Part shown: one piece after another, positions 288-31,954 of the stretch | Layout: each line of letters begins with the position of its first letter | Numbering within the stretch: the first letter of the stretch is position 1 | Virus record (IMG/VR): IMGVR_UViG_2718218358_000004 | Source of the DNA: a virus | Lineage: Duplodnaviria > Heunggongvirae > Uroviricota > Caudoviricetes | DNA: 35,636 nt | Reading direction: 5' to 3' (one strand) | The notes under the pieces: model-generated | The model's database searches: none | What the model was told of the DNA's origin: nothing | The model's input: only the letters and a program-made list of their open reading frames with translations | Made by a program: the position numbers and the translations under genes

Positions 288-665
288 TTACTGATTTTTT
301 CTGTGCTGTGGTTTAAACAAACTACTGATAAATAAGAAACACAGTGCCCCCAGCGCACACCAGAACACCGCGCTTAGTAACCATGCCAGCTCTTGCCAGA
401 ATGAGCGGGTCGGTGAAAAAAACAGCCGCATAATAAGCATTGAACAGGGTGCCGCCAGCATTGCGCCAAATAGAGGTTTCAGGACTTCTCTACGCTGTGA
501 AAAGAAACTGGCAACTGCTCCAGGAAGAATGAAAAACAGCAAGCCGATTTCAGGATGCCCGGCAGCCCGAAAAGCGCCTTTCATGTGCGTCGCCAGAAAA
601 AGGCACACCACAATGAAGAGGACAAAACAGCAGATTGCCCCCGCCCAACGTTGTTTATGTTTCAC
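288..665 (-). CDS. ybjM: inner membrane protein YbjM
   Basis: 125-aa strongly hydrophobic ORF convergent with grxA; position and length match E. coli ybjM. Confidence 0.7.
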   Translation of the reverse strand: MKHKQRWAGAICCFVLFIVVCLFLATHMKGAFRAAGHPEIGLLFFILPGAVASFFSQRREVLKPLFGAMLAAPCSMLIMRLFFSPTRSFWQELAWLLSAVFWCALGALCFLFISSLFKPQHRKNQ

Positions 666-934: not shown

Positions 935-2620
935 GTGAATATAAACGTCGCCGAATTGTTAAATGGGAATTACATTCTGTTATTATTTGTGGTCCTCGCG
1001 CTTGGGCTATGTCTCGGAAAGTTACGACTTGGTTCGATCCAACTGGGTAATTCCATTGGCGTTTTAGTCGTATCGCTGTTATTAGGCCAACAACATTTCA
1101 GCATTAACACCGATGCGCTTAATCTTGGCTTTATGCTGTTTATTTTCTGCGTCGGGGTCGAAGCCGGACCGAACTTTTTTTCCATTTTTTTTCGCGATGG
1201 GAAAAATTACCTAATGTTAGCACTGGTGATGGTTGGCAGTGCGCTGGTGATCGCCTTAGGGTTAGGTAAGCTGTTTGGCTGGGATATTGGCCTGACGGCC
1301 GGTATGTTAGCAGGCTCTATGACGTCGACACCGGTTCTGGTCGGTGCTGGCGATACACTGCGTCATTCCGGTATGGAAAGCAGGCAGCTCTCACTGGCAC
1401 TGGATAATCTGAGCCTCGGATATGCCTTAACCTATTTAATCGGTCTGGTGAGTTTGATTGTTGGTGCGCGTTACTTGCCGAAATTGCAGCATCAGGACTT
1501 ACAGACCAGCGCCCAGCAAATCGCCCGCGAACGTGGCCTGGACACTGATGCCAACCGTAAGGTTTATTTACCGGTGATCCGCGCCTATCGCGTCGGCCCG
1601 GAGCTGGTGGCCTGGACCGACGGCAAAAATCTGCGTGAACTGGGTATTTATCGACAAACCGGCTGCTACATTGAACGTATTCGACGTAACGGGATTCTGG
1701 CAAATCCAGACGGTGATGCCGTGCTACAAATGGGCGATGAAATAGCGTTGGTAGGCTATCCCGACGCCCATGCCCGACTCGATCCCAGCTTCCGTAACGG
1801 TAAAGAAGTTTTCGATCGTGACCTTCTCGACATGCGTATCGTCACTGAAGAAGTGGTCGTTAAAAACCATAACGCTGTAGGTAAACGTCTCGCACAACTG
1901 AAGTTGACCGATCACGGTTGCTTCCTTAACCGCGTCATTCGTAGCCAGATTGAGATGCCGATAGATGACAACGTCGTGCTTAACAAAGGTGACGTTTTAC
2001 AAGTCAGCGGTGATGCCCGTCGCGTAAAAACCATCGCCGATCGCATCGGCTTTATCTCGATTCACAGCCAGGTCACTGACCTGCTGGCATTTTGCGCCTT
2101 CTTTGTTATTGGGCTGATGATCGGGATGATCACCTTCCAGTTCAGCACATTCAGTTTCGGCATGGGGAACGCTGCCGGGTTGTTATTCGCCGGAATTATG
2201 CTGGGCTTTATGCGTGCTAACCACCCGACCTTCGGTTACATTCCGCAAGGTGCATTAAGCATGGTGAAAGAGTTCGGCTTGATGGTGTTTATGGCAGGCG
2301 TTGGTCTGAGCGCCGGTAGCGGTATTAATAACGGCCTGGGCGCGATTGGCGGTCAGATGTTGATTGCCGGATTAATTGTCAGTCTTGTGCCCGTGGTTAT
2401 CTGTTTCTTGTTCGGTGCTTATGTATTGCGAATGAACCGCGCACTGTTGTTCGGCGCAATGATGGGCGCACGCACCTGCGCGCCGGCAATGGAGATCATC
2501 AGTGATACAGCTCGCAGTAACATCCCTGCGCTGGGCTATGCGGGCACCTACGCAATCGCCAACGTCCTGCTGACGCTGGCAGGGACAATCATCGTCATGG
2601 TATGGCCAGGATTAGGATAA
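935..2620 (+). CDS. ybjL: putative transporter YbjL (AAE family, two membrane domains with central soluble domains)
   Basis: 561-aa ORF with hydrophobic N- and C-terminal halves and a central soluble region; matches E. coli YbjL length and neighbourhood. Confidence 0.85.
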
Positions 2621-2732
2621 AACTGAAGTTGCCCTGAAAATGAAATTTTTTTGCACAACCGCAGAACTTTTCCGCAGGGCATCAGTCTTAATTAATGCCA
2701 CTGCTTTTCTTTGATGTCCCCATTTTGTGGAG

Positions 2733-2776
2733 CCCATCAACCCCGCCATTTCGGTTCAAGGTTGATGGGTTTTTTG
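2733..2776 (+). terminator. putative rho-independent terminator downstream of ybjL
   Basis: 10-bp stem cccatcaacc (2733-2742) / ggttgatggg (2760-2769) followed by TTTTTT (2770-2775). Confidence 0.5.
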
Positions 2777-2855
2777 TTGTCTGAAATTTAAGCTATTTAA
2801 AATCATGATGTTAGAAGCACTGTTTTTTAATGATGGCGACAAATTGGCGGCAGAG

Positions 2856-3074
2856 TCAAAGAGAGAGCGCCACCTGTCCTGATTTCATTGGATGCGGCTG
2901 AACCGGATTTGACTCTTTTGGCGTTGCAATCGAACGAACAAAAGTTTCATGGGTAACAAAAGTATGGCTGCAGTTAATGTTCTGGCACTGGTTGTAACGC
3001 TCTTTGGTCAATGAAGATACCTGAAAACTGCTGCGAGTATGGGCGGCACTTCCACACAGTGGGCAAATCATCAT
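2856..3074 (-). CDS. ogr: late transcription activator Ogr (zinc-finger)
   Basis: 72 aa from Met12 of the ORF; CPLCG...CQNINC four-Cys zinc finger and overall similarity to P2 Ogr as remembered. Confidence 0.8.
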   Translation of the reverse strand: MMICPLCGSAAHTRSSFQVSSLTKERYNQCQNINCSHTFVTHETFVRSIATPKESNPVQPHPMKSGQVALSL

Positions 3075-3164
3075 TTTTCGAGTTCTCCCCATTTTTGCTA
3101 AATTCACAATAATGATACCTTATTATTCCATTTTGCAAACTTAAAAGTTCTCCATTGCGAAGAA

Positions 3165-4265
3165 TCATTCCATTTCGAAATCATCAATCTTCACTTCAAG
3201 CTCCAGACTGGTCGTAAAACCGTTATCCGGGCTGACGGTATGTGTCAGAGTCGTAATGGTCCATTCCGCATCATCTATCGGCTGTTTAAAGCCACTGACC
3301 TTCACAGGCATTTCCGTGTAGAGATCTGCCCGCCCTTCCGCCAGTCGTAGCGAGAATGACGCAACACCGCGTTGCAGGCGTTCCCACTGCATTTTCGCCG
3401 CTCGTTCGGCGTTGCTCCGGTTGGCATAAGTGCGATTAAGTACCAGAACGTTTTCATCCGTACCCACCAGGTAATCGCCCTGCTTCGCTTCCGGCTCTTT
3501 CTTCTGCTTTGCGGTCCTGCGCTTACGCTTCACCGTGGTGCTCTCTTTCTTCGCGGGTTCGCGGGTATGCAACCAGCTGGCAATTACGCCCGTGTAGGCA
3601 CCGCGATCAGCCAGGGTAAATCGGTGACTGTCGCCGTCCTTGCGTGTGATAGTGATCACCGGCAGAGGTTTACCGCTGGCGCTTTTGCCCTGTCCCTGCC
3701 GGATGAATAACAGATTGCCATTTTTCACCGACGCGATGGCACCGTACTGTCGCGCCAGCCGCATCAGAAAACTGCCGTCACTCTCATTGGTCTGGTCTAT
3801 ATGATCCACGGGTTTATCCGACAGGTCTTTACCCAGTGCCATCTTCAGCTTGTGACGTACGGCTATTTCCTTCACCACTTCCCCAACGGTGGTCTTGTGC
3901 CACGACTTTTCACGGCGGGTATTCAGCGTTTCCCTAAAATCAGCACTTCGCGCCCGGATAGTCAGGCGGTCCGGTGCGCCAGTGTGTTCAATCTCGTCCA
4001 CCGTGAATGCCCCTTTCGGGAAAAGCGGCTGCCCCTTCCAGCCCAGCGCCAGCGTAATGACCGCACCACGGCGCGGCAGCACGATTTTTCCGTCGGCGTC
4101 GTCCAACTCCAGCTCAAGCTGGTCCGCTTCAAAGCCCCGGTTATCCGTCAGCGTCAGCCCCATCAGGCGGTTATCCAGCACTGTGGTGATATCCCTGCCC
4201 TCAATACTGATGCTGAATGCGGGAGTTTTGTTACCTTTGTTAAGCAGTTCAGAGCTGAAATTCAC
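3165..4265 (-). CDS. D: tail protein D (late control gene D)
   Basis: 366-aa ORF at the position and with the length of P2 gpD, downstream of U in the tail operon. Confidence 0.8.
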   Translation of the reverse strand: MNFSSELLNKGNKTPAFSISIEGRDITTVLDNRLMGLTLTDNRGFEADQLELELDDADGKIVLPRRGAVITLALGWKGQPLFPKGAFTVDEIEHTGAPDRLTIRARSADFRETLNTRREKSWHKTTVGEVVKEIAVRHKLKMALGKDLSDKPVDHIDQTNESDGSFLMRLARQYGAIASVKNGNLLFIRQGQGKSASGKPLPVITITRKDGDSHRFTLADRGAYTGVIASWLHTREPAKKESTTVKRKRRTAKQKKEPEAKQGDYLVGTDENVLVLNRTYANRSNAERAAKMQWERLQRGVASFSLRLAEGRADLYTEMPVKVSGFKQPIDDAEWTITTLTHTVSPDNGFTTSLELEVKIDDFEME

Positions 4266-8304: not shown

Positions 8305-8820
8305 TCAGAGGCCGAGGGCGTTGCGGTGCGCTTCCATCAGGTCCACACCGTCCACAATTTCCACCATGTTGATAAGGTCCACTTCATAGAGCACCTCACC
8401 ATTGATGGTCAGCTTCGCGTAGCTGTTGGTACTGGTCACTTTGGTGGTGTTACTTTCGCCCGTCTTCCACTCGCCGGAATCCACTTCTTTGTGACGACCA
8501 CGCACCACAAGCTCCACGGCCTGCACTTCCCCGGTATCATCACGCTGGATAGAGCCGGTAAAGCGCAACTGGATGCCATCCACAGTGGCTTTGCCCATTT
8601 GCTTAAACAGCAGCAGTTCAGTACCACCAATGGAAAATTCTGTGTCCAGCGCACTGTCATCAAGCCCCAGATCCACATCCACTGCACCCGGCATTCCGCC
8701 GCCGCGATACTTCTCATATTTGCGGGTGAATTTCGGCAGCGTCAGCGATTCAACGATCCCCTGCCAGTTGTTCCCGTCGTTAAACAGGTTCAGGTGTTTT
8801 AATTTGCGTGGTAAAGCCAT
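8305..8820 (-). CDS. FII: tail tube protein FII
   Basis: 171-aa ORF, P2 gpFII size and position directly downstream of FI. Confidence 0.85.
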   Translation of the reverse strand: MALPRKLKHLNLFNDGNNWQGIVESLTLPKFTRKYEKYRGGGMPGAVDVDLGLDDSALDTEFSIGGTELLLFKQMGKATVDGIQLRFTGSIQRDDTGEVQAVELVVRGRHKEVDSGEWKTGESNTTKVTSTNSYAKLTINGEVLYEVDLINMVEIVDGVDLMEAHRNALGL

Positions 8821-8829
8821 GTTGTCCCC

Positions 8830-10002
8830 TTACGCGCTGACCTGGCTGGCGAAATTCACCAGGTACTGATCGGTGATGCGCTGACGCAGCATCAGGTTTT
8901 CAAGTGGCGGCACTGGCGTGTAGTCGTAGTCGATGGTGAGTTTTCCGGCTTTCAGCGTGTCTTTGTCGTTCACCGACTCGTCCAGCCAGCAATCACCACC
9001 AATGAGATACCCCTGACTGACCAGGCTGCGCATTTTGGCGCGGATGCCCTCGATAATGTCGCGCGCCAGCGACGGGTTCAGCGGTTTGTCCACTGCCCAC
9101 ATGTGCGCTTCTGCCATTGTGTCCGTCAGCACCTGCGCCGTGCGGGTGTAGTTTTCGAAGGCAAAGAGCGGGTCATCACTCAGGCAGCGGGAACCCCAGA
9201 AGCGGAAACCGTCTTTACGCACAAGCGTGGTGACGTCGTTCTGGTTCAGCAGACCTGCATCGGTTGCCGGGTCCTGCAGATCCCAGAACACATCTGCAGA
9301 AATTCCGGTGACACCGTTCACGCCCACGTTGGACAGGCTTTTGTGCCACCCAGTCTGCTCATCAATTTTGGCACGCAGACCAAGCGCACGGGCGGTGGCA
9401 TATGCCGTTGCTTCGGCATTCAGCACCGTGTCCCAGCCAGTAAAGTCGGGCCAGATCAGCATTCCTTCGCGCTGGCTGAAGTTTTCACGGTAAGTGATCG
9501 CCTCCTGCACCGTCTTGCAGCCATACGCTGACAGGTAAGCAAACCCACGCAGGCTTTGCGCCACACTCAGCAACTCAGTAGCAACGGCTTTGTTATCGTG
9601 ACCTGGCACGCCGAGAATGCGCGGTTTAACACCGAGCTGTGTCTGGGCAGATAACAGGGCTTTCATGCCTGTTTTTTTACCTTCAGCAGTCACTGCGCCG
9701 ATGATATTGGTCGTGGTTTCTTCTTCTGTTTCACCCTGCGGCACACGCACAACAACGGTCACGGGTTTTGCCTGGTCAGCGATGGCATCCAGCGAACGGG
9801 CCAGCGTGCCGGACTCACCCGCTTTACCGCTGGCAGTCAGCACATCAGTGATCAGCACGGGTTTATTAAGAGGAAACATTTTTGCATCGGCATCATCGCC
9901 CGTGCAGACCATACCCACGATGGCGGTGCTCACCGTGGTAATGGATCGGGTGCCTTCGTTGATTTCAACAACGCGCACCCCGTGGTGGTAATCCTGAGCC
10001 AT
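8830..10002 (-). CDS. FI: contractile tail sheath protein FI
   Basis: 390-aa ORF, P2 gpFI size and position at head of FI-FII-E-T-U-D operon. Confidence 0.9.
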
Positions 10003-10078
10003 AGCGGCGAACCTCCTGATTGGATTAGGCTTCGCCCTATGTTGAAGTGATTGTGCCCGACAAACAGCTAAGTATAGT

Positions 10079-10096
10079 TGTACCGTTATTCACACA
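10079..10096. promoter_or_regulatory. TGT-N12-ACA dyad, candidate Ogr-dependent late promoter element (FI operon)
   Basis: tgtaccgttattcacaca, centred about 85 nt upstream of the FI start codon. Confidence 0.5.
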
Positions 10097-10144
10097 AAAT
10101 GACGGTATTTGTCTACTTGCAGTGATAATCAAAATTATGCTGAT

Positions 10145-10717
10145 TCAGGGGGATTCACTGCTCTTATTTGCCGGAAATTTTCTATAAATGGTAGAAACGC
10201 CCACATCAAAAATCAGTGCAATACGCTGTCTTGATTCTCCGGCCTCTAGTAAACGTCCAATCTGTGCCCACTGTTCGGTGGTCAACTTAGGGCGGCGTCC
10301 ACCTACTCTGCCTTTGTCGCGAGCTGCAGCAATCCCCGCCCTGGTACGTTCAACTATCAGTTCGCGTTCCATTTCAGCCAGGGCACCCATGACATGAAAA
10401 AAGAAACGGCCCATTGGGGTACTGGTATCAATACTGTCAGTCAGGCTTCTGAAATTCACACCACGCTGGCGTAACTCTTCTATCAGCGTAACAAGATGCC
10501 GCATACTGCGCCCCAACCTGTCCAGCTTCCAGACAACCAGCGTGTCTCCTGCCGATAGTGTCCTGAGCAGTTTTTTCAGCCCCGGTCTGTCGGACTTAGT
10601 GCCGCTGATTTTATCCTCAAAAATCCGCTCACATCCCGCGCAGTTCAGCGCACTACGTTGCAAATCGGTGTTCTGGTCATTTGTTGACACGCGTACATAG
10701 CCAATAAGCATGATCAT
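10145..10717 (-). CDS. serine DNA invertase (Hin/Gin/Cin/Pin family)
   Basis: 190-aa ORF; N-terminus GYVRVSTNDQ with catalytic Ser, LVVWKLDRLGRS, C-terminal HTH GVSTIYRKF; near-identical in pattern to Hin/Pin as remembered. Confidence 0.9.
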   Translation of the reverse strand: MIMLIGYVRVSTNDQNTDLQRSALNCAGCERIFEDKISGTKSDRPGLKKLLRTLSAGDTLVVWKLDRLGRSMRHLVTLIEELRQRGVNFRSLTDSIDTSTPMGRFFFHVMGALAEMERELIVERTRAGIAAARDKGRVGGRRPKLTTEQWAQIGRLLEAGESRQRIALIFDVGVSTIYRKFPANKSSESP

Positions 10718-10766
10718 CTCCTTGAATAAAAATCGGGGATGATGCCAGTTAGTCGTAATAGCTGCA

Positions 10767-10792
10767 TTTTCTTAAACGTTGGTTTGGGAGAA
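10767..10792. other. invertase crossover site (hix/gix/cix-like), right
   Basis: TTTTCTTAAACGTTGGTTTGGGAGAA; inverted copy of the site at 12615-12640 sharing the 12-bp half-site TTCTCCCAAACC. Confidence 0.55.
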
Positions 10793-11260
10793 GGTTCAGC
10801 ATTACCTGTTGGTGCGCCTGTTCCGTGGCCTTCAGAGACACCTCCAACAGGCTGGCTGAAATGCAACGGGGCGGCTTTTTCTGCTGAAGAATACCCGGAA
10901 CTGGCAAAGGCTTACCCGACAAATAAATTGCCTGATTTACGAGGTGAATTTATTCGTGGCTGGGATGATGGGCGCGGTATTGATGCAGGACGTGCTTTAT
11001 TGAGCCTTCAGGCTGGGATGCTGGAAAAGCACCGTCATATTGTTGTTGCCAATGATGGTTACGACACAAAAGATGAATGGGAACTGGCTACGATTTTCAA
11101 AAAGACATACACACAAGGACGGGGACTTGATGCCACAAATACAGGAGGGAGTCTGATCCCATCACCGACACTTCATTCACGAGGGAGTATCGGTAATACT
11201 GGCGGGAGTGAAACCCGTCCACGAAATATTGCATTTAACTTTATCGTGAGGGCTGCATAA
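10780..11260 (+). CDS. alternative tail-fibre C-terminal segment (currently not fused to H)
   Basis: Open frame from the crossover site; encodes GLGE motif at the crossover identical to that in H (aa GLLAYLGLGE); the upstream Met at 10739 in the ORF track is probably not a real start. Confidence 0.65.
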
Positions 11261-11862
11261 TGGATAACGCCGTATTAAATAGCGAGCTTATTGCCACGAA
11301 GGCGGGGAATATTACCGTCTATAACTATGATGGTGAAACTCGGGAATATATTTCCACTTCAAATGAATATCTTGCCATTGGTGTCGGTATCCCTGCATAT
11401 TCCTGTTTAGATGCCCCTGGCACACATAAGGCGGGTTATGCTATCTGCCGTTCGATGGATTTAAACTCATGGGAATATGTGCCAGACCATCGCGGTGAAA
11501 TCGTTTTTAGCACCAAAACAGGGGAATCAAAAGAAATCACAGCTCCGGGTGATTACCCTGATAATACAACCACTATCGCCCCGTTAACGCCATACGATAA
11601 ATGGGATGGTGAGAAATGGGCGACGGATACCGAGGCACAGCACGGCGCAGCAGTAGATGCAGCAGAAGCACAGCGCCAGTCGCTGATTGATACTGCAATG
11701 GCCTCCATCAGTCTGATTCAGCTGAAATTGCAGGCCGGACGTAAACTGACGCAGGCAGAAACAACCCGCCTTAACGCTGTGCTGGATTACATTGACGCGG
11801 TGACGGCAACAGATACCAGCACCGCGCCGGATGTCATCTGGCCTGAACTGCCGGAGGCGTAG
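11260..11862 (+). CDS. alternative tail-fibre assembly protein (Tfa')
   Basis: 200-aa ORF with conserved Tfa C-terminal motif (LDYIDAV...TS.APD..WPE.P); 3' ends overlap the active tfa gene convergently. Confidence 0.75.
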   Translation: MDNAVLNSELIATKAGNITVYNYDGETREYISTSNEYLAIGVGIPAYSCLDAPGTHKAGYAICRSMDLNSWEYVPDHRGEIVFSTKTGESKEITAPGDYPDNTTTIAPLTPYDKWDGEKWATDTEAQHGAAVDAAEAQRQSLIDTAMASISLIQLKLQAGRKLTQAETTRLNAVLDYIDAVTATDTSTAPDVIWPELPEA

Positions 11863-12277
11863 GCCATTCAATATCTGGCGCACCGGAAGTATCAACCAGC
11901 TCCAGTGCGTCCAGATAATCCAGCCACAAATTATATTGCGCCAGTTCCTCATCTTTCAGACGACCAATAGCGGCTTTACCGGGCCATTGCTTACTGTTCA
12001 TGTGTTCGTTGGCCTGATTAAGCAATAATTGTCTTTCTGATTCTGCCTGTTGAATAAGTTCTTCATGTGATGGTTGAGGTATTTCAGCCCATGTGGGAAA
12101 ACCATTTACCCCTGCAACTCGGATTTTCCCTTGTGGCGGTTCCGCCATATATTTTACAGAAATGTTATCAGGAATATCTAATGCATCAGCGGGCCATGTT
12201 CCATTTACTTCATAAGTATTTTTTAAATTAACAGCATAAAATGCATTTTCCGAAGGGGAATAAATATATTGATTCAT
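11834..12277 (-). CDS. G: tail-fibre assembly protein
   Basis: 147-aa ORF immediately downstream of H with conserved Tfa C-terminal motif. Confidence 0.8.
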   Translation of the reverse strand: MNQYIYSPSENAFYAVNLKNTYEVNGTWPADALDIPDNISVKYMAEPPQGKIRVAGVNGFPTWAEIPQPSHEELIQQAESERQLLLNQANEHMNSKQWPGKAAIGRLKDEELAQYNLWLDYLDALELVDTSGAPDIEWPTPPAVQAR

Positions 12278-12278
12278 A

Positions 12279-13676
12279 TTATCTTCCTATTGCGATAATC
12301 ATAGTTCCATACAAACCATTTCCGGTTGATACTTTTAAGGTTACTGATGTCCTTGTTGTCGTGTACCCCATAAGTTTAAAGGTCGGAGCAGCCGTTAATG
12401 TGCCATCAGACCATAAGGCACTAACAGCAAATGCACCTGAAGGAAATGCAATAGGGAAATTACCAGTAGTTCCGTTAGTGTCCGCCCCATAAACATTCAT
12501 CGAAAACATTTGAACAATATGACCACTTGGTAACTGAAACCAGTTTTTGCCAGATGGGAATGCAGACATATCTGGTATCTGATTTTCCCCTGTTCCCACA
12601 TTTCGTTTTGCCGCTTCTCCCAAACCAAGGTATGCGAGAAGACCAGCTACATCCTTTCCACTCAAATTGGTAAGCGTATTGTCCAGCGGTTGTTTACCTG
12701 CCAGCGCATTAAGCATTGTCGTGGCAAAGTTCGGATCATTCCCCAGTGCCGCCGCCAGTTCGTTCAGTGTATCCAGTGCCGCAGGTGCAGAACCCACCAT
12801 TGCTGCAATCGCTGATTTCACAAAAGCTGTAGTGGCAATCTGTGTATTGTTGACCGACTGTGCCGCAGTAGGTGCTGTTGGCGTTCCGGTGAGTGCCGGA
12901 CTCGACAGTGGCGCTTTCAGTGCCAGCGCATTGTTAATGGTGGTACTGAATTTCGGATCATTGTTAATGGCTACGGCTATTTCTTTCAGCGTGTCCAGCG
13001 TGGCTGGCGCACCATTAATAAGAGCCGTCAGTGCCGCCTGAACAAACGCGGTGGTCGCAATCTGCGTGGTGTTATTCCCCTCCGCTGGCGTTGGCGCTTT
13101 GGGTGTTCCGGTCAATGTCGGGCTTTCTTTGGGTGCATACTGTGAATGCGGGTCCGGTGCGGCAAGATGTTTTGCCATCTTATCATCCACGAACACCTTC
13201 AGCTCCAGTACCTTGTCATCCACATACTTGCGGGTTGCCAGCACGACGGCAGGGTCGATTTTCAGGGTGATATTGTCCGTGCTGCTGGTAATCAGCACCA
13301 TGCGCACGGTCTGGGTGCGCCCGCTGCCTTCAGCCAGTTGCGGCTTATAGCTTTCCGGGCAGTTGCCCACGGCAATTAATGCCCCTGACTCATCAAACAG
13401 GCCCACTTCACGTATCCACCAACCGCCCTCGTTTTCAGGGATCACCTGTTCAGCAATAATCTGGCTGCTGTTCTGCGGGTCGATATAGAGCATATTCAGC
13501 GCAGCCCGGCGTTTCTCATTTACCAGTGCAGTCTGCTTTGCGTCCGGCGTCGGCAATGCTCCGCCGCCATCGCCCACCGCCATATGGGTAATTTTTAGCG
13601 GCACACCGAGCGCGGCGGCGCTGGCAAGTTTCGCCGCGCCAATATCCGTCAGCAGGGTATAAAATTTTGTGCTCAT
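12279..13676 (-). CDS. H: tail fibre protein
   Basis: 465-aa ORF with internal repeated NNTQIATTAFV...LDTL modules; position between I and G as in P2. Confidence 0.85.
   Translation of the reverse strand: MSTKFYTLLTDIGAAKLASAAALGVPLKITHMAVGDGGGALPTPDAKQTALVNEKRRAALNMLYIDPQNSSQIIAEQVIPENEGGWWIREVGLFDESGALIAVGNCPESYKPQLAEGSGRTQTVRMVLITSSTDNITLKIDPAVVLATRKYVDDKVLELKVFVDDKMAKHLAAPDPHSQYAPKESPTLTGTPKAPTPAEGNNTTQIATTAFVQAALTALINGAPATLDTLKEIAVAINNDPKFSTTINNALALKAPLSSPALTGTPTAPTAAQSVNNTQIATTAFVKSAIAAMVGSAPAALDTLNELAAALGNDPNFATTMLNALAGKQPLDNTLTNLSGKDVAGLLAYLGLGEAAKRNVGTGENQIPDMSAFPSGKNWFQLPSGHIVQMFSMNVYGADTNGTTGNFPIAFPSGAFAVSALWSDGTLTAAPTFKLMGYTTTRTSVTLKVSTGNGLYGTMIIAIGR
12615..12640. other. invertase crossover site (hix/gix/cix-like), left, inside H
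   Basis: TTCTCCCAAACCAAGGTATGCGAGAA; imperfect dyad; inverted relative to 10767-10792. Confidence 0.55.
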
Positions 13677-24951: not shown

Positions 24952-26898
<1,947 letters not shown>

Positions 26899-27876: not shown

Positions 27877-28110
27877 TTAATGCAGCCAGCTGTCGTCCTC
27901 CCACACCTTCTGCATAATTTTCATCACTTGTTTTCTTTCTTCATCCAGTTGCAGTCCGGTTAGTTCCACACCGTTAGAGCTACCTTTGCGAATGCGAATT
28001 ACCGTTTTGGGATACAGGGGGCGCAGATTGCGGTAAAGCTCGGATTCAAGTGCGTCCAAGGTAGACTGGCTAATCTTCTGCTCTTTATCGATCATTATTT
28101 CAATGCGCAT
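27877..28110 (-). CDS. DinI-like protein
   Basis: 77 aa from MRIEIM; pattern matches E. coli DinI (MRIEV...LxxELxxR...WExxDxW) as remembered. Confidence 0.7.
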   Translation of the reverse strand: MRIEIMIDKEQKISQSTLDALESELYRNLRPLYPKTVIRIRKGSSNGVELTGLQLDEERKQVMKIMQKVWEDDSWLH

Positions 28111-28120
28111 AAAAGTCACC

Positions 28121-28309
28121 TCAGCTGATGACATCCATTGAGCGGTTGTATTCGTGGCTTCTGATTTTTGCCATGAGTTCATCAGTCAATTCAGAAACCC
28201 ACTGCAGAGCCAGCCCCTTCTCTTCATCACTACACTCACTAGCCGCTACAAGCTTAAGAAAAAAATCAATGCGCTGGAGCTTCAAAGACTCCAAAAAATA
28301 GTCCTGCAT
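28121..28309 (-). CDS. small protein, first gene of LexA-box operon (possible Tum-like antirepressor N-terminal part)
   Basis: 62-aa ORF directly downstream of a LexA box and 10 nt upstream of the DinI-like gene. Confidence 0.45.
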   Translation of the reverse strand: MQDYFLESLKLQRIDFFLKLVAASECSDEEKGLALQWVSELTDELMAKIRSHEYNRSMDVIS

Positions 28310-28461: not shown

Positions 28462-30882
28462 TTAATACAGGTTCCGCCACTTATCATCTTCCCTCAGACG
28501 CTGGTTCCGATAGAAGATACGCAGGCCTGCTCCTGACGGAATACTGCCGCCGCGAAGGAGCAAATCGACTTCTTTCTCGCTGCCATCAAATCCCCTGGAC
28601 TTCAGTTCATAGACGAGCTGCTGTCGCTGATGGTCTGTAATTCGCTGTTTGTAGTCTTTACGCCGTTTCGGTTTCACCTGGCGTAACCTTGCAGCCAGTT
28701 CCCGGCGCTCTTTTTTGCTCATACTGTGCAGGTAATCGTGCAACTCCTTGTCATTCATACGGGTAATATCCGTTCTGGAGTCCCCATCAGCTGATTTGTC
28801 TTTCCCTTGTTGGTTCAAATTTTCAGCAAGGGGACAGTTATTGCCACGAGTCCAAGGGGCGCAAGCGCCCTGGTCGGCTGCCGCCTCCTGAACGTCAACG
28901 GCCTTACGAACCATTTTCCACTTCACCGCATGAGTGCAGATCTTGCCCTCTGCAATGGGTGACCAGATGCCATAAATACGAATACCGTGATCGCCATATG
29001 CGGTCGGTTCTTCGTTGATTTCATAAGCAGTTCTGATGAGGTGATATTTGCGGGGAACCAGTACGCCGCCCTGCTTCATGATGTAGGTGGCAAAACAACC
29101 AGCATCAGCAGCAGCCAGGATTGCATCAAGGCGCGGGTTATCCAGTACCGGCGCACCTGCTTTTTTGTCACCCTGTTGCCTTGCCGCCTGACCAGCCAGC
29201 AATCGCAGTTCACGGTAAGCCTGACGCCCCGGAATGCCAAAGAAGCGGAATTGCTGAACACGATGCAGAGACGCCCAAGCATTAACGTATTCAGCGTTAT
29301 CACGCAGGGATTTACCCGTTTCCTTGCTGATCTCCCCAGCCAGACCACGCCCGTCAATGTTCTTACTGATGTATTTCGCGATATAGCTTGTTGGCGTACC
29401 TTTGCGCGGGTTTATCAGCTCAGACTTAAAGCGTGGTCCCGTGTTATTGCCCAGCTCCTCGCGGTCTTCACGGATGGCAAACTTACGCAGTAATGCAGTG
29501 ATGGCGCGGCGGTCTTTTTTACGCATGAAACACATGAGATGCCAGTGCACAGTACCGTCATGATGCGGCTCAGCTACCCGCACGCCATACCAGCGCAACT
29601 CGGCTTTATGCATAGCCTTACGAAATGCAGCAAACATGCCGACCAGATAATCGCTACTTTGTCTTACCGTCGCGTTTGTCCAGGTCGGGTTTGGTCTGCC
29701 GTTATTGAGCGTGGAATGGAAACGCGACGGACAGGTGATAGTGTAGAAAACGGCACAGTCACTGCGCATTTCCGCGATAAGCTCCAGACCTTTAACACAG
29801 GCCATCATCTCATTGCGGCGATGCGCCGGGTTGCTGCTGCTGGCGTTTACCACATCTTCCATATCCAGCGTGTCGCCGTCTTCGTTCACCAGTTCATGAG
29901 AACGAAAAAACTCCAGCGACTTACGGCGCTGCTCACGTTTATGCATCACGGCTTCATAGCTGACATAGGGGGATGCTTTTTTGCTGACCAGGCAGACAGC
30001 ACGCAACTGCTCTTCCCGCCATTCGCAACGCATCTTCCATAATTTCCGATACCACCAGTCGGCACACAACATACGCGCCAGCGAACCCGGGATGAGTTCA
30101 TAGGGCACTGGTTTGCGGCGGTTTCTTTTCCGACGAAGTTTCTCAAACGCAGGCGGGATAACATCCAGACGCAGGGTTTCCGCTGCCACCTTTTCCCATG
30201 TCTTGCGGATTTCTTCTGGCTTAACGTCATCGGTGGCATACAAATCACCACAAGCGTCCTCAAGACACATGCTCATATGCGCTGCTACCAGGGTGGACAG
30301 GCGTTTCACCTGATCCTGGCTCATTTCAGGCAGGATCAGCAGCCCCTCCAGCCCTTGATGGCTTGCCATAAAACGGAAAGAAACAGATAGCTGACTGTCA
30401 CGTACACAATCCAGTCGCTCCAGACATGGCTTAATCGTCTCACGCAAATAGCGGGAATAAGCCTTTGGCCTGCCCAGGCTGCTGAAGTATTCAATACGTT
30501 GCATCAGCGGCTTGCTGATATGGGAAGGCTGGGCGTTTACGTCCGCCAGAATGACCATGTCCGGATTAAAACGCTGCTGCTCATGCGCCAGCTTTGCCCG
30601 GCTAATGAGCTTATCCTGCTCCATTTCGCGCTGGACAGGATCACGGGATTCATTAAAGAAATAACGCTCCCAGACCTGCTCACTCAGTGCCTCGCGGCGC
30701 AGTTGTTCCTGCTCGTTATCGGCAGCGTACAGAGTGATCAGGTTTGAAAGTGCAGACTCCGGCGCAACTTCCGCCGGGTCCAGATAAGGGTTAATGGCCT
30801 TTTTCGAGCCGTTCCATGAAAATGCTGCGGCGGCCTCGTTAAAGCCGCTGCAATTGTTCATATCGTCATGACTCATACACAC
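28462..30882 (-). CDS. A: replication initiation endonuclease A (rolling-circle initiator)
   Basis: 806-aa ORF at P2 gpA position with P2 A-like size; start may be a few codons internal. Confidence 0.85.
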
Positions 30883-31730
30883 ACTCCGTACACGGCAGAA
30901 CTATCCACGCCACGCGAAGGATCAAATCCCAACCAGCAGCTCGGCCCGGAAACAGCAATGATTTCTGTTGCAGATTTACCCTCGCCAGCTGACACGCCGA
31001 TGCTGCGTTTTGCCTTGATATAGTGGTGAGTAAAATTGCGATACAGCGAACGAATCAGGGATGTGTCATTGTTAGAAACAATGACCGGATGTCCTTCTGA
31101 TGACCGATGTTCAAGAATGGATGCCAGGTGATACTGGTCATCTTCAGTGAAACCATCAGTGTGATAGCCGGAAAACGTACCGTCATACGGCGGATCGCAA
31201 TACACCACATCCTCCACCTGCAGCATCGCCAGCGTTTCATCAAAGCTCGCGCAGATAAACGTTGCCCGCTGGGCTTTCTCTGCAAATGCGCGAATTTCTT
31301 TTTCAGGGAAATACGGATTTTTATAATTACCGTAGGGAATGTTGAAATACCCGCTCTTGTTATAGCGACATAAACCACGGTAACCGTGACGATTGAGATA
31401 CAGGAAATATATCGCCTTCATGAAATCAGTAATTTCAGTTGAGTAATTAAACTCCTGTCTTATGTTGTAATAAGCCAGCTCACTGTTTGCTTCCTCAAAT
31501 AAAACTTTGGCACGAGATATAAACGCTTCGCAATCAGCGGCAATCTTTTTATAGAGGTTGATTAAATCAGGATTAATATCCGCAACCAGATAGCTGGGGT
31601 AATCCGTCGCCATCATCACAGCACAAGAACCCGCGAAAGGTTCAACCAGTCGCGGGCCAGCAGGAAGGTATTTTTTCAGTTCGGACATAATGGCGGTTTT
31701 ATTACCCGCCCATTTCAGGATGGTGCTCAT
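30873..31730 (-). CDS. dam: DNA adenine methyltransferase (Dam family)
   Basis: 285 aa from [11 protein letters not shown]; motifs [36 protein letters not shown] closely resemble E. coli Dam as remembered. Confidence 0.85.
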
Positions 31731-31954
31731 ACAGCACCTCTGTTGTAATGTTTGCCTTTCAGCTCTGCGATTTCCTGGCAGGTAATGCAAAGCTGCACTC
31801 CAGGAATGGCACGGCGGCGTGCTGGCGGAATTGGCGCTTCACACTCAACGCAAAGCACGCGGGACACGCCCGGCGTTTTGGCACGGGCAGCACGGATATG
31901 GCGTTGGCGTTCTTCTTCAACGCGCTGCTGTACGAGATCCATTGCATCAGCCAT
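31727..31954 (-). CDS. TraR/DksA-family C4 zinc-finger protein
   Basis: 75-aa ORF with CVECEAPIP...CITCQ four-Cys motif; analogous to P2 orf82. Confidence 0.7.
   Translation of the reverse strand: MADAMDLVQQRVEEERQRHIRAARAKTPGVSRVLCVECEAPIPPARRRAIPGVQLCITCQEIAELKGKHYNRGAV

Follow-up and report, generated by a model that had tools for sequence, protein, structure and literature searches.

Whether a DNA invertase gene and the pair of tail-fibre cassettes beside it form a switch that can still turn is the question raised by this locus, which lies in an E. coli chromosome with a P2/186-like prophage, one bearing retron Ec67. The prophage is apparently complete and close kin of isolated phages, and the module formed by the invertase and the invertible segment is placed between the tail-fibre gene H and the sheath gene. 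Throughout the text, the window is the whole stretch of 35,636 nucleotides that was analysed. The locus is very probably a functional switch of the Pin type, which changes the tail fibre of this prophage by site-specific inversion. Devices of this kind are already known; they are ordinary, textbook ones and have been annotated in many genomes, and the importance of the present case is slight beyond correct annotation.

The invertase gene and its possible control region

Three features lie at the left end of the module, next to the first crossover site.

10145..10711, minus strand: DNA invertase gene, 188 aa, of the Pin/Gin/Cin/Hin small serine recombinases, assigned from Pfam domains, identity and conserved residues
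10627..10689, no strand: putative recombinational enhancer within the 5' end of the invertase coding sequence, made up of two matches to the Fis consensus (10675-10689 and 10627-10641)
10739..10747, minus strand: ATGATGCCA / TGGCATCAT, possible extended -10 of the invertase promoter; on the plus strand, start codon of the ORF in the silent position

The open reading frame of the invertase spans 10145-10717 on the minus strand. Its likelier start is the ATG at 10711, to which point both the Shine-Dalgarno sequence AAGGAG, with the ATG 6 nt after it, and the RefSeq annotation of homologues, with which the length of 188 aa agrees. The protein matches Resolvase (PF00239, 8.6e-53) over residues 5-137 and HTH_7 (PF02796, 1.2e-15) over residues 140-183, as well as the Mu Gin structures 3UJ3/4M6F at E=4e-92, and it is 84% identical to PinE of e14 and 74% identical to Gin of Mu. 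Residue-by-residue alignment to 3UJ3/4M6F reveals the active-site motifs GYxRVST and KLDRLGRS, and the catalytic Ser9 (Gin S9 / Hin S10) is kept together with Arg7, Tyr5 and His106. The Fis-contact residues specific to invertases have been defined in Hin (PMC3798978). With the Hin numbering offset taken from the 1HCR alignment, their counterparts Q150/R153/L154 (Hin Q151/R154/L155) are present, and basic helix B is kept as K46/K47/R50 (Hin 47, 48 and 51). The enzyme belongs to the same Fis/enhancer-dependent subfamily as Hin of the Salmonella Hin/hix system. A reading made earlier from the sequence alone had assigned the gene to the Hin/Gin/Cin/Pin family, and the identities to PinE and Gin and the conserved serine bear this out.

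The two Fis-consensus matches fall at nt 23-37 and 71-85 of the gene, 48 bp apart centre to centre, and the proximal one lies 97.5 bp from the crossover centre of site L. In hin, the enhancer is 65 bp long, has its two Fis sites 47 bp from each other and is located about 100 bp from hixL (PMC3798978), likewise inside the invertase gene, so that the candidate is alike in position. The matches occupy the same positions in gin and pinE, a conservation confounded by coding. Because the Fis consensus is degenerate (~2 chance hits per 300 nt), the pair is put forward as a putative enhancer at the level of sequence only.

Between the invertase and site L, the ATGATGCCA / TGGCATCAT motif recurs in e14 and Mu with the same spacing to the crossover site as in the window, and the peptide between motif and site is not conserved. 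On the minus strand the motif might possibly provide the extended -10 of the invertase promoter. A simple sigma-70 scan returned no promoter upstream of the invertase and nothing at 10739..10747; sigma-70 and terminator scans gave no excess of sites over shuffles. Rfam at the gathering threshold produced no match in the region, RybB being its sole match in the window.

Crossover sites and exchangeable fibre tips

The segment, its two sites and the genes that it carries or adjoins are the following.

10767..10792, no strand: crossover site L, invertase-proximal, plus strand TTTTCTTAAACGTTGGTTTGGGAGAA, central TT at 10779-10780
12615..12640, no strand: crossover site R, inside gene H, plus strand TTCTCCCAAACCAAGGTATGCGAGAA, central AA at 12627-12628
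10779..12628, no strand: invertible segment, 1,850 bp including the central dinucleotides, from breakpoints and cassette-exchange boundaries
12627..13676, minus strand: constant part of tail-fibre gene H, residues 1-350, Pfam Phage_tail_fib N-terminal domain (6e-65)
12279..12626, minus strand: active fibre C-terminus, 115 aa, gp53-like tip, now fused to H, Pfam Gp53-like_C (3e-7, H residues 382-465)
11834..12277, minus strand: chaperone of the active cassette, 147 aa, in the P2 gpG position, Pfam Caudo_TAP (2e-33)
10781..11260, plus strand: silent alternative fibre C-terminus, 159 aa, collar-type, StfE-like, Pfam Collar (8e-16)
11260..11862, plus strand: chaperone of the silent cassette, 200 aa, TfaE-like, Pfam Caudo_TAP (2e-32), 91% identity to e14 TfaE

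The strongest inverted repeat of the region pairs 10767-10793 with 12614-12640. Sites L and R, both imperfect dyads, are identical at 21 of 26 positions in inverted orientation, with TTCTCCCAAACC-AA in common, and the central dinucleotide, read from the shared half-site, is AA in both. As the central dinucleotides lie at 10779-80 and 12627-28, the segment measures 1,850 bp, in agreement with the 1.85 kb between inverted 26-bp sites claimed in the sequence-only reading. Exactly two copies of the 14-mer TTCTCCCAAACCAA are present in the 35.6-kb window, inverted relative to each other; with up to two mismatches there are three matches in the window against a mean of 0.37 in shuffles. The third match (at 26029, with two mismatches) is no more than chance would give and belongs to the retron RT gene, 13 kb distant. 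A shufflon or other multiple-inversion system with at least three sites, of the kind seen in p15B Min and in the shufflon-like P2 prophage of EPEC, was considered and rejected, the window having two sites only.

Site L differs at a single one of 26 bases from the pin-proximal pix site of e14, and is identical in KP12, PE144, CI5, OkiPb01682 and OkiPb01698. Of the related loci that were compared, 8 have an identical site R, whose GGTAT variant also appears in the cix site located inside S in the P1-like phage RCS47. Alignment to the known crossover consensus had been suggested as a check on the sites, and pix, cix and gix all align with them.

Site R covers H codons 346-354, and its inner half-site encodes GLGE (H residues 351-354). 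The same GLGE is present in the ORF at 10739-11260 (173 aa), as the sequence-only reading had proposed for both H and an alternative C-terminus. In the present orientation, the sequence gives an H of 465 aa with the gp53-like tip, and a Tfa of 147 aa. Inversion in silico joins H residues 1-350 in frame to the silent collar/StfE-like tip, yielding 509 aa with no stop, and the TfaE-like chaperone follows; this supports the earlier reading of the unfused ORF as an alternative fibre C-terminus. This 173-aa 'tail fibre' ORF should be annotated as a silent cassette and not as a gene fragment or pseudogene. Each orientation also brings its own chaperone, again as claimed, since both tfa genes encode Caudo_TAP proteins and overlap convergently by 29 bp (11834-11862); the overlap of tfaP and tfaE in e14 is also 29 bp.

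The constant part of H shares 97% identity with those of Cartapus, KP12 and ST130, whose C-termini differ. The silent collar tip shares 59% identity with StfE of e14 and 99.4% with the tip expressed on the H (509 aa) of E. coli ST130, and it matches the T4 gp37 tip (2XGF) at 1e-18. A sequence search of the PDB with the gp53-like tip found no solved homologue. The chaperone of the active cassette is 65% identical to e14 TfaP in its C-terminal half. Coming from unrelated domains, Collar/T4 gp37-like in one case and gp53-like in the other, the two tips would be expected to give different host ranges. H in this prophage has two possible C-termini, and host-range predictions for the induced phage must count both.

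Both orientations in related prophages

All four junction types occur among the 5,426 complete E. coli genomes searched at no less than 80% query coverage. H is joined to the gp53-like cassette in 7 records and to the collar cassette in 375; on the other side, the invertase adjoins gp53 in 23 records and collar in 771. An H of 509 aa is on record for ST130; in CI5 and OkiPb01682 the annotated H is a fusion of the same kind with 513 aa. ST130 was considered as an exact flipped twin and rejected, its gp53-like cassette being only 54% identical to the window's over 68 aa. In view of this divergence, CI5, OkiPb01682 and OkiPb01698, which have the same cassettes as the window, were used instead.

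The most direct comparison is that of OkiPb01682 with OkiPb01698, two related Okinawa isolates. Their flanks show 0 mismatches over 3,814 and 1,954 nt, and the segment between them runs in opposite directions in the two isolates; its breakpoints lie within sites that match those of the window base for base. This pair is natural evidence of recent flipping in a homologous prophage. Its invertase differs from that of the window at 4 of 188 residues (N20S, L127I, A132D and N185S; 98% identity). In flipped relatives the homology breakpoints fall inside the two sites, and in Cartapus and KP12 the cassette-exchange boundaries are at 10793 and 12614. Both orientations are found in homologous prophages with identical sites, which disposes of the doubt, raised with the initial proposal, that only one might ever be seen. 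An assembly artefact was likewise ruled out, because many complete genomes independently show the identical architecture. A search of complete E. coli genomes for a flipped copy with at least 99% identity found none, the best full-length match reaching 98.0%. The only near-identical prophage, that of QA-1986 630, has the orientation of the window plus an IS66 insertion.

From what is known of the family, the switch would operate as follows. The lysogen would make the invertase at a low level, invertase dimers would bind both 26-bp sites, and Fis, bound to an enhancer that would lie within the start of the invertase gene itself, would lead to the invertasome. Both sites would then be cut at the central AA/TT, and one half turned by 180 degrees and religated, inverting the 1,850 bp. 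As the sequence shows, the H promoter and codons 1-350 remain in place, codons 351 onwards (GLGE...) and the chaperone being supplied by the cassette that faces H. As either cassette may face H, with a 465-aa or a 509-aa product, a lysogenic clone would release two kinds of virion. By analogy with Mu and P1, these presumably differ in receptor specificity and probably recognise different LPS-core types.

Known inversion systems and alternative readings

The closest well-studied system is the P segment with PinE in e14 of E. coli K-12 (Plasterk & van de Putte 1985; PMC4272514; PMC12529663), whose pix sites, nearly identical to the two sites here, have been shown experimentally to be recombined by PinE and PinQ (PMC12529663). 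Besides the identities of invertase (84%), TfaE (91%) and StfE (59%), both systems share the TTCTCCCAAACCAA core, 25 of 26 bases of the pin-proximal site, and the same layout of variable tip, tfa, convergent tfa (29-bp overlap), variable tip and invertase. They differ in that e14, the remnant of a lambdoid phage, is defective and its fibre gene truncated, whereas here an intact P2-type H is found in an apparently complete prophage, and the second tip is gp53-like instead of StfP-like. The G segment with Gin in Mu and the C segment with Cin in P1 follow the same logic, with a constant fibre N-terminus, two inverted C-termini with their chaperones and an adjacent invertase. Gin is 74% identical to the enzyme described here, and gix and cix are 26-bp sites with an AAACC-NN-GGT(T/A)T core, as in the window, although gix has GA as its central dinucleotide where the window has AA. 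Mu and P1 belong to other phage families with different fibre constant parts, and their segments are larger (3 kb in Mu and 4.2 kb in P1, against 1,850 bp). Hin differs in flipping a promoter instead of protein-coding cassettes.

Among P2-like phages, inversion has been demonstrated by sequencing and PCR in prophages of EPEC E2348/69 (Goldberg 2014; PMC4272514), and the P2 Z/fun hotspot has been noted (bioRxiv 10.1101/2024.10.15.618418). The invertible loci of the EPEC prophages, Cartapus and KP12 sit where this one does, with H/G on one side and FI, the sheath gene, on the other. Three repeats and four variants are found in one of the EPEC prophages, in contrast to the two sites and two variants here. 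In Cartapus (NC_070909) and 'Klebsiella phage KP12' (OM835953) the invertase is 98% and the constant part of H 97% identical to the window's, and the sites are the same save for one base in the invertase-proximal site of Cartapus. Only the cassette content differs, and homology stops exactly at the two sites, and the locus is thereby a clear case, found in nature, of cassettes being exchanged precisely at crossover sites. It also exemplifies Pin-type sites common to e14 and P2-like prophages, a sharing that makes cross-talk between invertases within one cell possible.

Two other readings of the locus have to be weighed. The module might descend from a flipping ancestor and no longer invert here, the fibre being fixed in its gp53-like form by too little invertase or by a disabling effect of one of its four private substitutions. 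Such a history would fit the failure of the simple sigma-70 scan to detect a consensus promoter upstream of the invertase, the four residues that set the enzyme apart from the homologue seen in both orientations, and the orientation that the near-identical prophage of QA-1986 630 shares with the window. However, the invertase ORF is intact with all catalytic and Fis-contact residues conserved, none of N20S, L127I, A132D and N185S falls at the catalytic or Fis-contact positions checked, and both sites are base for base those of prophages found in either orientation. Moreover, inversion could be driven in trans by further Pin-type invertases of the cell, as happens to e14 with PinQ (PMC12529663). 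Loss of inversion in this prophage is given very little probability.

The other reading starts from e14, where the chimera StfE2, made by inversion, blocks T2 adsorption (PMC12529663), and holds that the switch serves mainly the host: the ORF at 10739-11260, a short leader plus the unfused cassette, would be expressed in the lysogen and mask a surface receptor against other phages, and inversion would amount to phase variation of a defence. The geometry is e14-like, with an ATG ~28 nt from the invertase start that reads in frame through the site into the cassette; this ATG is kept in the window, e14 and Mu, and the cassette and chaperone resemble StfE and TfaE (59% and 91% identity). Were this ORF expressed in such a role, inversion would bring about phase variation of a host defence in addition to altering the host range of the virion. 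Nevertheless, the ORF has no recognisable RBS or promoter and begins only 27 nt from the divergent start of the invertase, and its leader peptide is unlike that of e14 save for MMP and the site-encoded residues, so that the conserved motif is better explained as the -10 of the invertase promoter on the other strand. In addition, the gp53-like tip is without similarity to e14 StfP, whose C-terminus forms StfE2. Expression of the 'silent' ORF by the lysogen, its product masking a receptor against phages in the way claimed for StfE2 of e14, seems quite improbable, and a switch turned mainly to the needs of the host very improbable. For a tail-fibre switch of the Pin type, a function in the virion suffices, as the prophage looks complete and is near kin of isolated phages.

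Crossover sites and segment layout

The tail-fibre locus of this P2/186-like prophage very probably works as an active switch of the Pin type, in which two receptor-binding tips, each with its chaperone, alternate. It is textbook knowledge that Gin, Cin and Pin invert segments encoding tail fibres; RefSeq and GenBank entries already label homologues of the locus DNA invertase, tail fibre or tail fibre assembly protein, and a switch of this kind is already known. The top inverted repeat within 8500-13500 (10767-10793 / 12614-12640) covers two 26-bp crossover sites. Site L, proximal to the invertase gene, reads TTCTCCCAAACC-AA-CGTTTAAGAAAA on the minus strand, and site R, contained in codons 346-354 of the tail-fibre gene H, reads TTCTCCCAAACC-AA-GGTATGCGAGAA on the plus strand. 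Both sites are identical at 21 of 26 positions, with their central dinucleotides 1,850 bp apart. Their 14-mer core is present in the window in exactly two copies, inverted to each other; allowing two mismatches raises this to three matches, against 0.37 expected from shuffles. The intervening segment has no spare room, two tips and two Tfa genes filling its whole length:

10781-11260, plus strand: collar-type tip, now silent
11260-11862, plus strand: Tfa, 200 aa
11834-12277, minus strand: Tfa, 147 aa
12279-12626, minus strand: gp53-like tip, now fused to H

Both cassettes take their G-L-G-E codons from the inner half-site, and the overlap of the two tfa genes is 29 bp, the same as that of tfaP/tfaE in e14. 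All the elements listed by the sequence-only reading (invertase, inverted 26-bp sites, GLGE in both cassettes and tfa overlap) are present at the locus. Its proposed alignment to known crossover sites was also run, and the window sites align with those taken from annotated records: the e14 pix sites (TTCTCCCAAACCAACGTTTATGAAAA and TTCTCCCAAACCAAGGTTTTCGAGAG), the Mu gix site (TTCCTGTAAACCGAGGTTTTGGATAA) and the P1-like cix sites (TTCTCTTAAACCAAGGTATTGGATAA and TTCTCTTAAACCAAGGTTTAGGATTG). The invertase-proximal site is one base off its e14 counterpart, and the GGTAT variant of the H-internal site is shared with the S-internal cix. According to Kirigo et al. (PMC12529663), inversion of the P segment by PinE and PinQ takes place at the e14 repeats TTGGTTTGGGAGAAGG / CCTTCTCCCAAACCAA, whose core occurs in the window sites too.

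Both orientations in natural genomes

In silico inversion of the segment between the central dinucleotides produces an uninterrupted 509-aa H. In E. coli ST130, H is likewise 509 aa, with a tip 99.4% identical to the silent cassette of the window; the gp53-like ORF stands beside the invertase, and the homology breakpoints relative to the window fall within the sites. Searching 5,426 complete E. coli genomes with 600-bp junction probes (coverage of at least 80%) revealed all four junction types. On the H side, 7 records join H to gp53 and 375 join it to the collar; on the invertase side, the corresponding numbers are 23 and 771. The clearest case is that of OkiPb01682 and OkiPb01698, related bovine isolates from Okinawa sharing a prophage whose flanks display no mismatches over 3,814 and 1,954 nt. 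They carry the 1.85-kb segment in opposite orientations, with breakpoints inside 26-bp sites identical to those of the window, and constitute a natural before/after pair for the switch. As natural evidence, this pair points to a recent inversion in a homologue 96-97% identical to the window prophage. What the sequence establishes (the components and their reading frames, membership of the invertase family, and both orientations in close homologues) supports the earlier interpretation of an invertible switch. We infer that the invertase is expressed and Fis-dependent, that flipping takes place in the window's strain, and that the tips differ in host range. Co-existing orientations have been demonstrated by sequencing and PCR for two P2-like prophages of EPEC (Goldberg et al., PMC4272514), and a 2024 preprint describes a DNA invertase, with inversion of neighbouring genes, as a frequent component of P2-like phages in the hotspot that separates the fibre genes from FI (bioRxiv 10.1101/2024.10.15.618418).

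The invertase, its candidate control elements and alternative readings

The invertase ORF occupies 10145-10717 (minus strand). Translation more likely begins at the ATG at 10711, which follows AAGGAG by 6 nt; the product is then 188 aa long, the length that RefSeq assigns to homologues. Pfam identifies Resolvase and HTH_7 domains, and among solved structures 3UJ3 and 4M6F of Mu Gin come closest (E=4e-92, end-to-end alignment). Identity reaches 84% with e14 PinE, 74% with Gin and 97-98% with the invertases of phages Cartapus and KP12, ST130 and the Okinawa strains. Two matches to a degenerate Fis core lie at nucleotides 23-37 and 71-85 of the gene (window 10675-10689 and 10627-10641), 48 bp apart and with 97.5 bp to the centre of site L, and occupy equivalent positions in gin and pinE. 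This layout agrees with what has been published for hin, where a 65-bp enhancer situated ~100 bp from hixL holds Fis sites at a spacing of 47 bp (PMC3798978), and the pair may represent a recombinational enhancer of that kind.

That the locus is a frozen relic seems very improbable. Ser9 and its flanking motifs are kept, as are the counterparts of residues specific to Fis-dependent invertases, namely Hin Q151/R154/L155 and the basic helix B residues 47/48/51 (McLean et al., PMC3798978). The four differences from the Okinawa invertase (N20S, L127I, A132D and N185S) all lie outside the catalytic and Fis-contact positions checked. A silent-position ORF that serves the host, as reported for e14 StfE2, is just as improbable. 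Its start codon could be provided by ATGATGCCA at 10739-10747, which sits in the interval separating the crossover site from the invertase start and is conserved there in e14 and Mu as well. However, conservation between e14 and the window does not extend to the peptide running from ATGATGCCA to the site, and the opposite strand reads TGGCATCAT, an extended -10-like element well placed for the invertase gene; for these two reasons a candidate extended -10 of the invertase is favoured over a start codon. If this promoter reading holds, autoregulation would be possible, the -35 lying against or partly within the crossover site. The top sigma-70-like match in the region (CTGAAA-18-TATAAT, 10/12; 11959-11930, minus strand) lies within the 147-aa tfa gene, directed through the silent-cassette antisense toward the invertase, in a region where such matches are not above shuffles in number.

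Cassette exchange, chromosomal setting and retron cargo

Homology to Cartapus and KP12 (95-96%) stops exactly at 10793 and 12614, and the segment interior holds different tips and chaperones in these phages, tip and chaperone varying together as units. The collar tip is akin to the T4 gp37 and gp12 collar regions; a sequence search for a solved relative of the gp53-like tip found none. In some relatives H is annotated as a pseudogene that lacks the C-terminal end, the gp53-like portion being a separate ORF (e.g. E. coli HCM-28C-2, 2599-4020); the fibre gene has therefore decayed in part of the family. E. coli QA-1986 630 (NZ_CP101920.1) carries a prophage 99.9-100% identical to that of the window at a shared chromosomal site, with an IS66-family ISCro1 in the variable part of H (1332-3947; window equivalent ~12354-12365) that disrupts the gp53-like tip.

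Chromosomal E. coli DNA makes up the left end of the window and shares 99.8% identity with many E. coli genomes:

288-665, minus strand: ybjM
935-2620, plus strand: ybjL
2700-2778, plus strand: RybB sRNA gene (Rfam, 105 bits)

RybB adjoins the left prophage boundary, beside ogr, and its region is likely the attachment region of the P2/186-like prophage. This prophage takes up the rest of the window from ~2.8 kb on, and the right end cuts the integrase gene. The order is ogr, D, U, the tape-measure gene, E, the tube and sheath genes and the switch locus; then I, J, W and V (the neighbours of H), with lysis, capsid and terminase genes behind them; and finally retron RT, DinI, replication gene A, Dam, CII, CI and integrase. 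Induced or isolated phages (e.g. KP12) and Peduoviridae (e.g. Cartapus) match it at 96% identity over ~80% of 25 kb. The prophage also encodes a DinI-like protein (27877-28182, minus strand) and a Dam-type N6-adenine methyltransferase (30873-31790, minus strand), an orphan MTase in PADLOC.

Retron Ec67 (Eco2) is carried as cargo at 24952-26712 (minus strand). Its RT-Toprim protein matches PDB 9I2F, 'Retron Ec67 protein', with 1325 bits and all 586 aa covered, and also PADLOC RT-Toprim_I-C. Rfam returned no retron RNA at the gathering threshold. A 13-nt inverted repeat (26750-26762 / 26868-26880) spans the stretch 26750-26880 just upstream of the RT gene and could form the a1/a2 arms of msr-msd. 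The called 646-aa retron ORF (start 26892) is probably over-extended by 60 codons.
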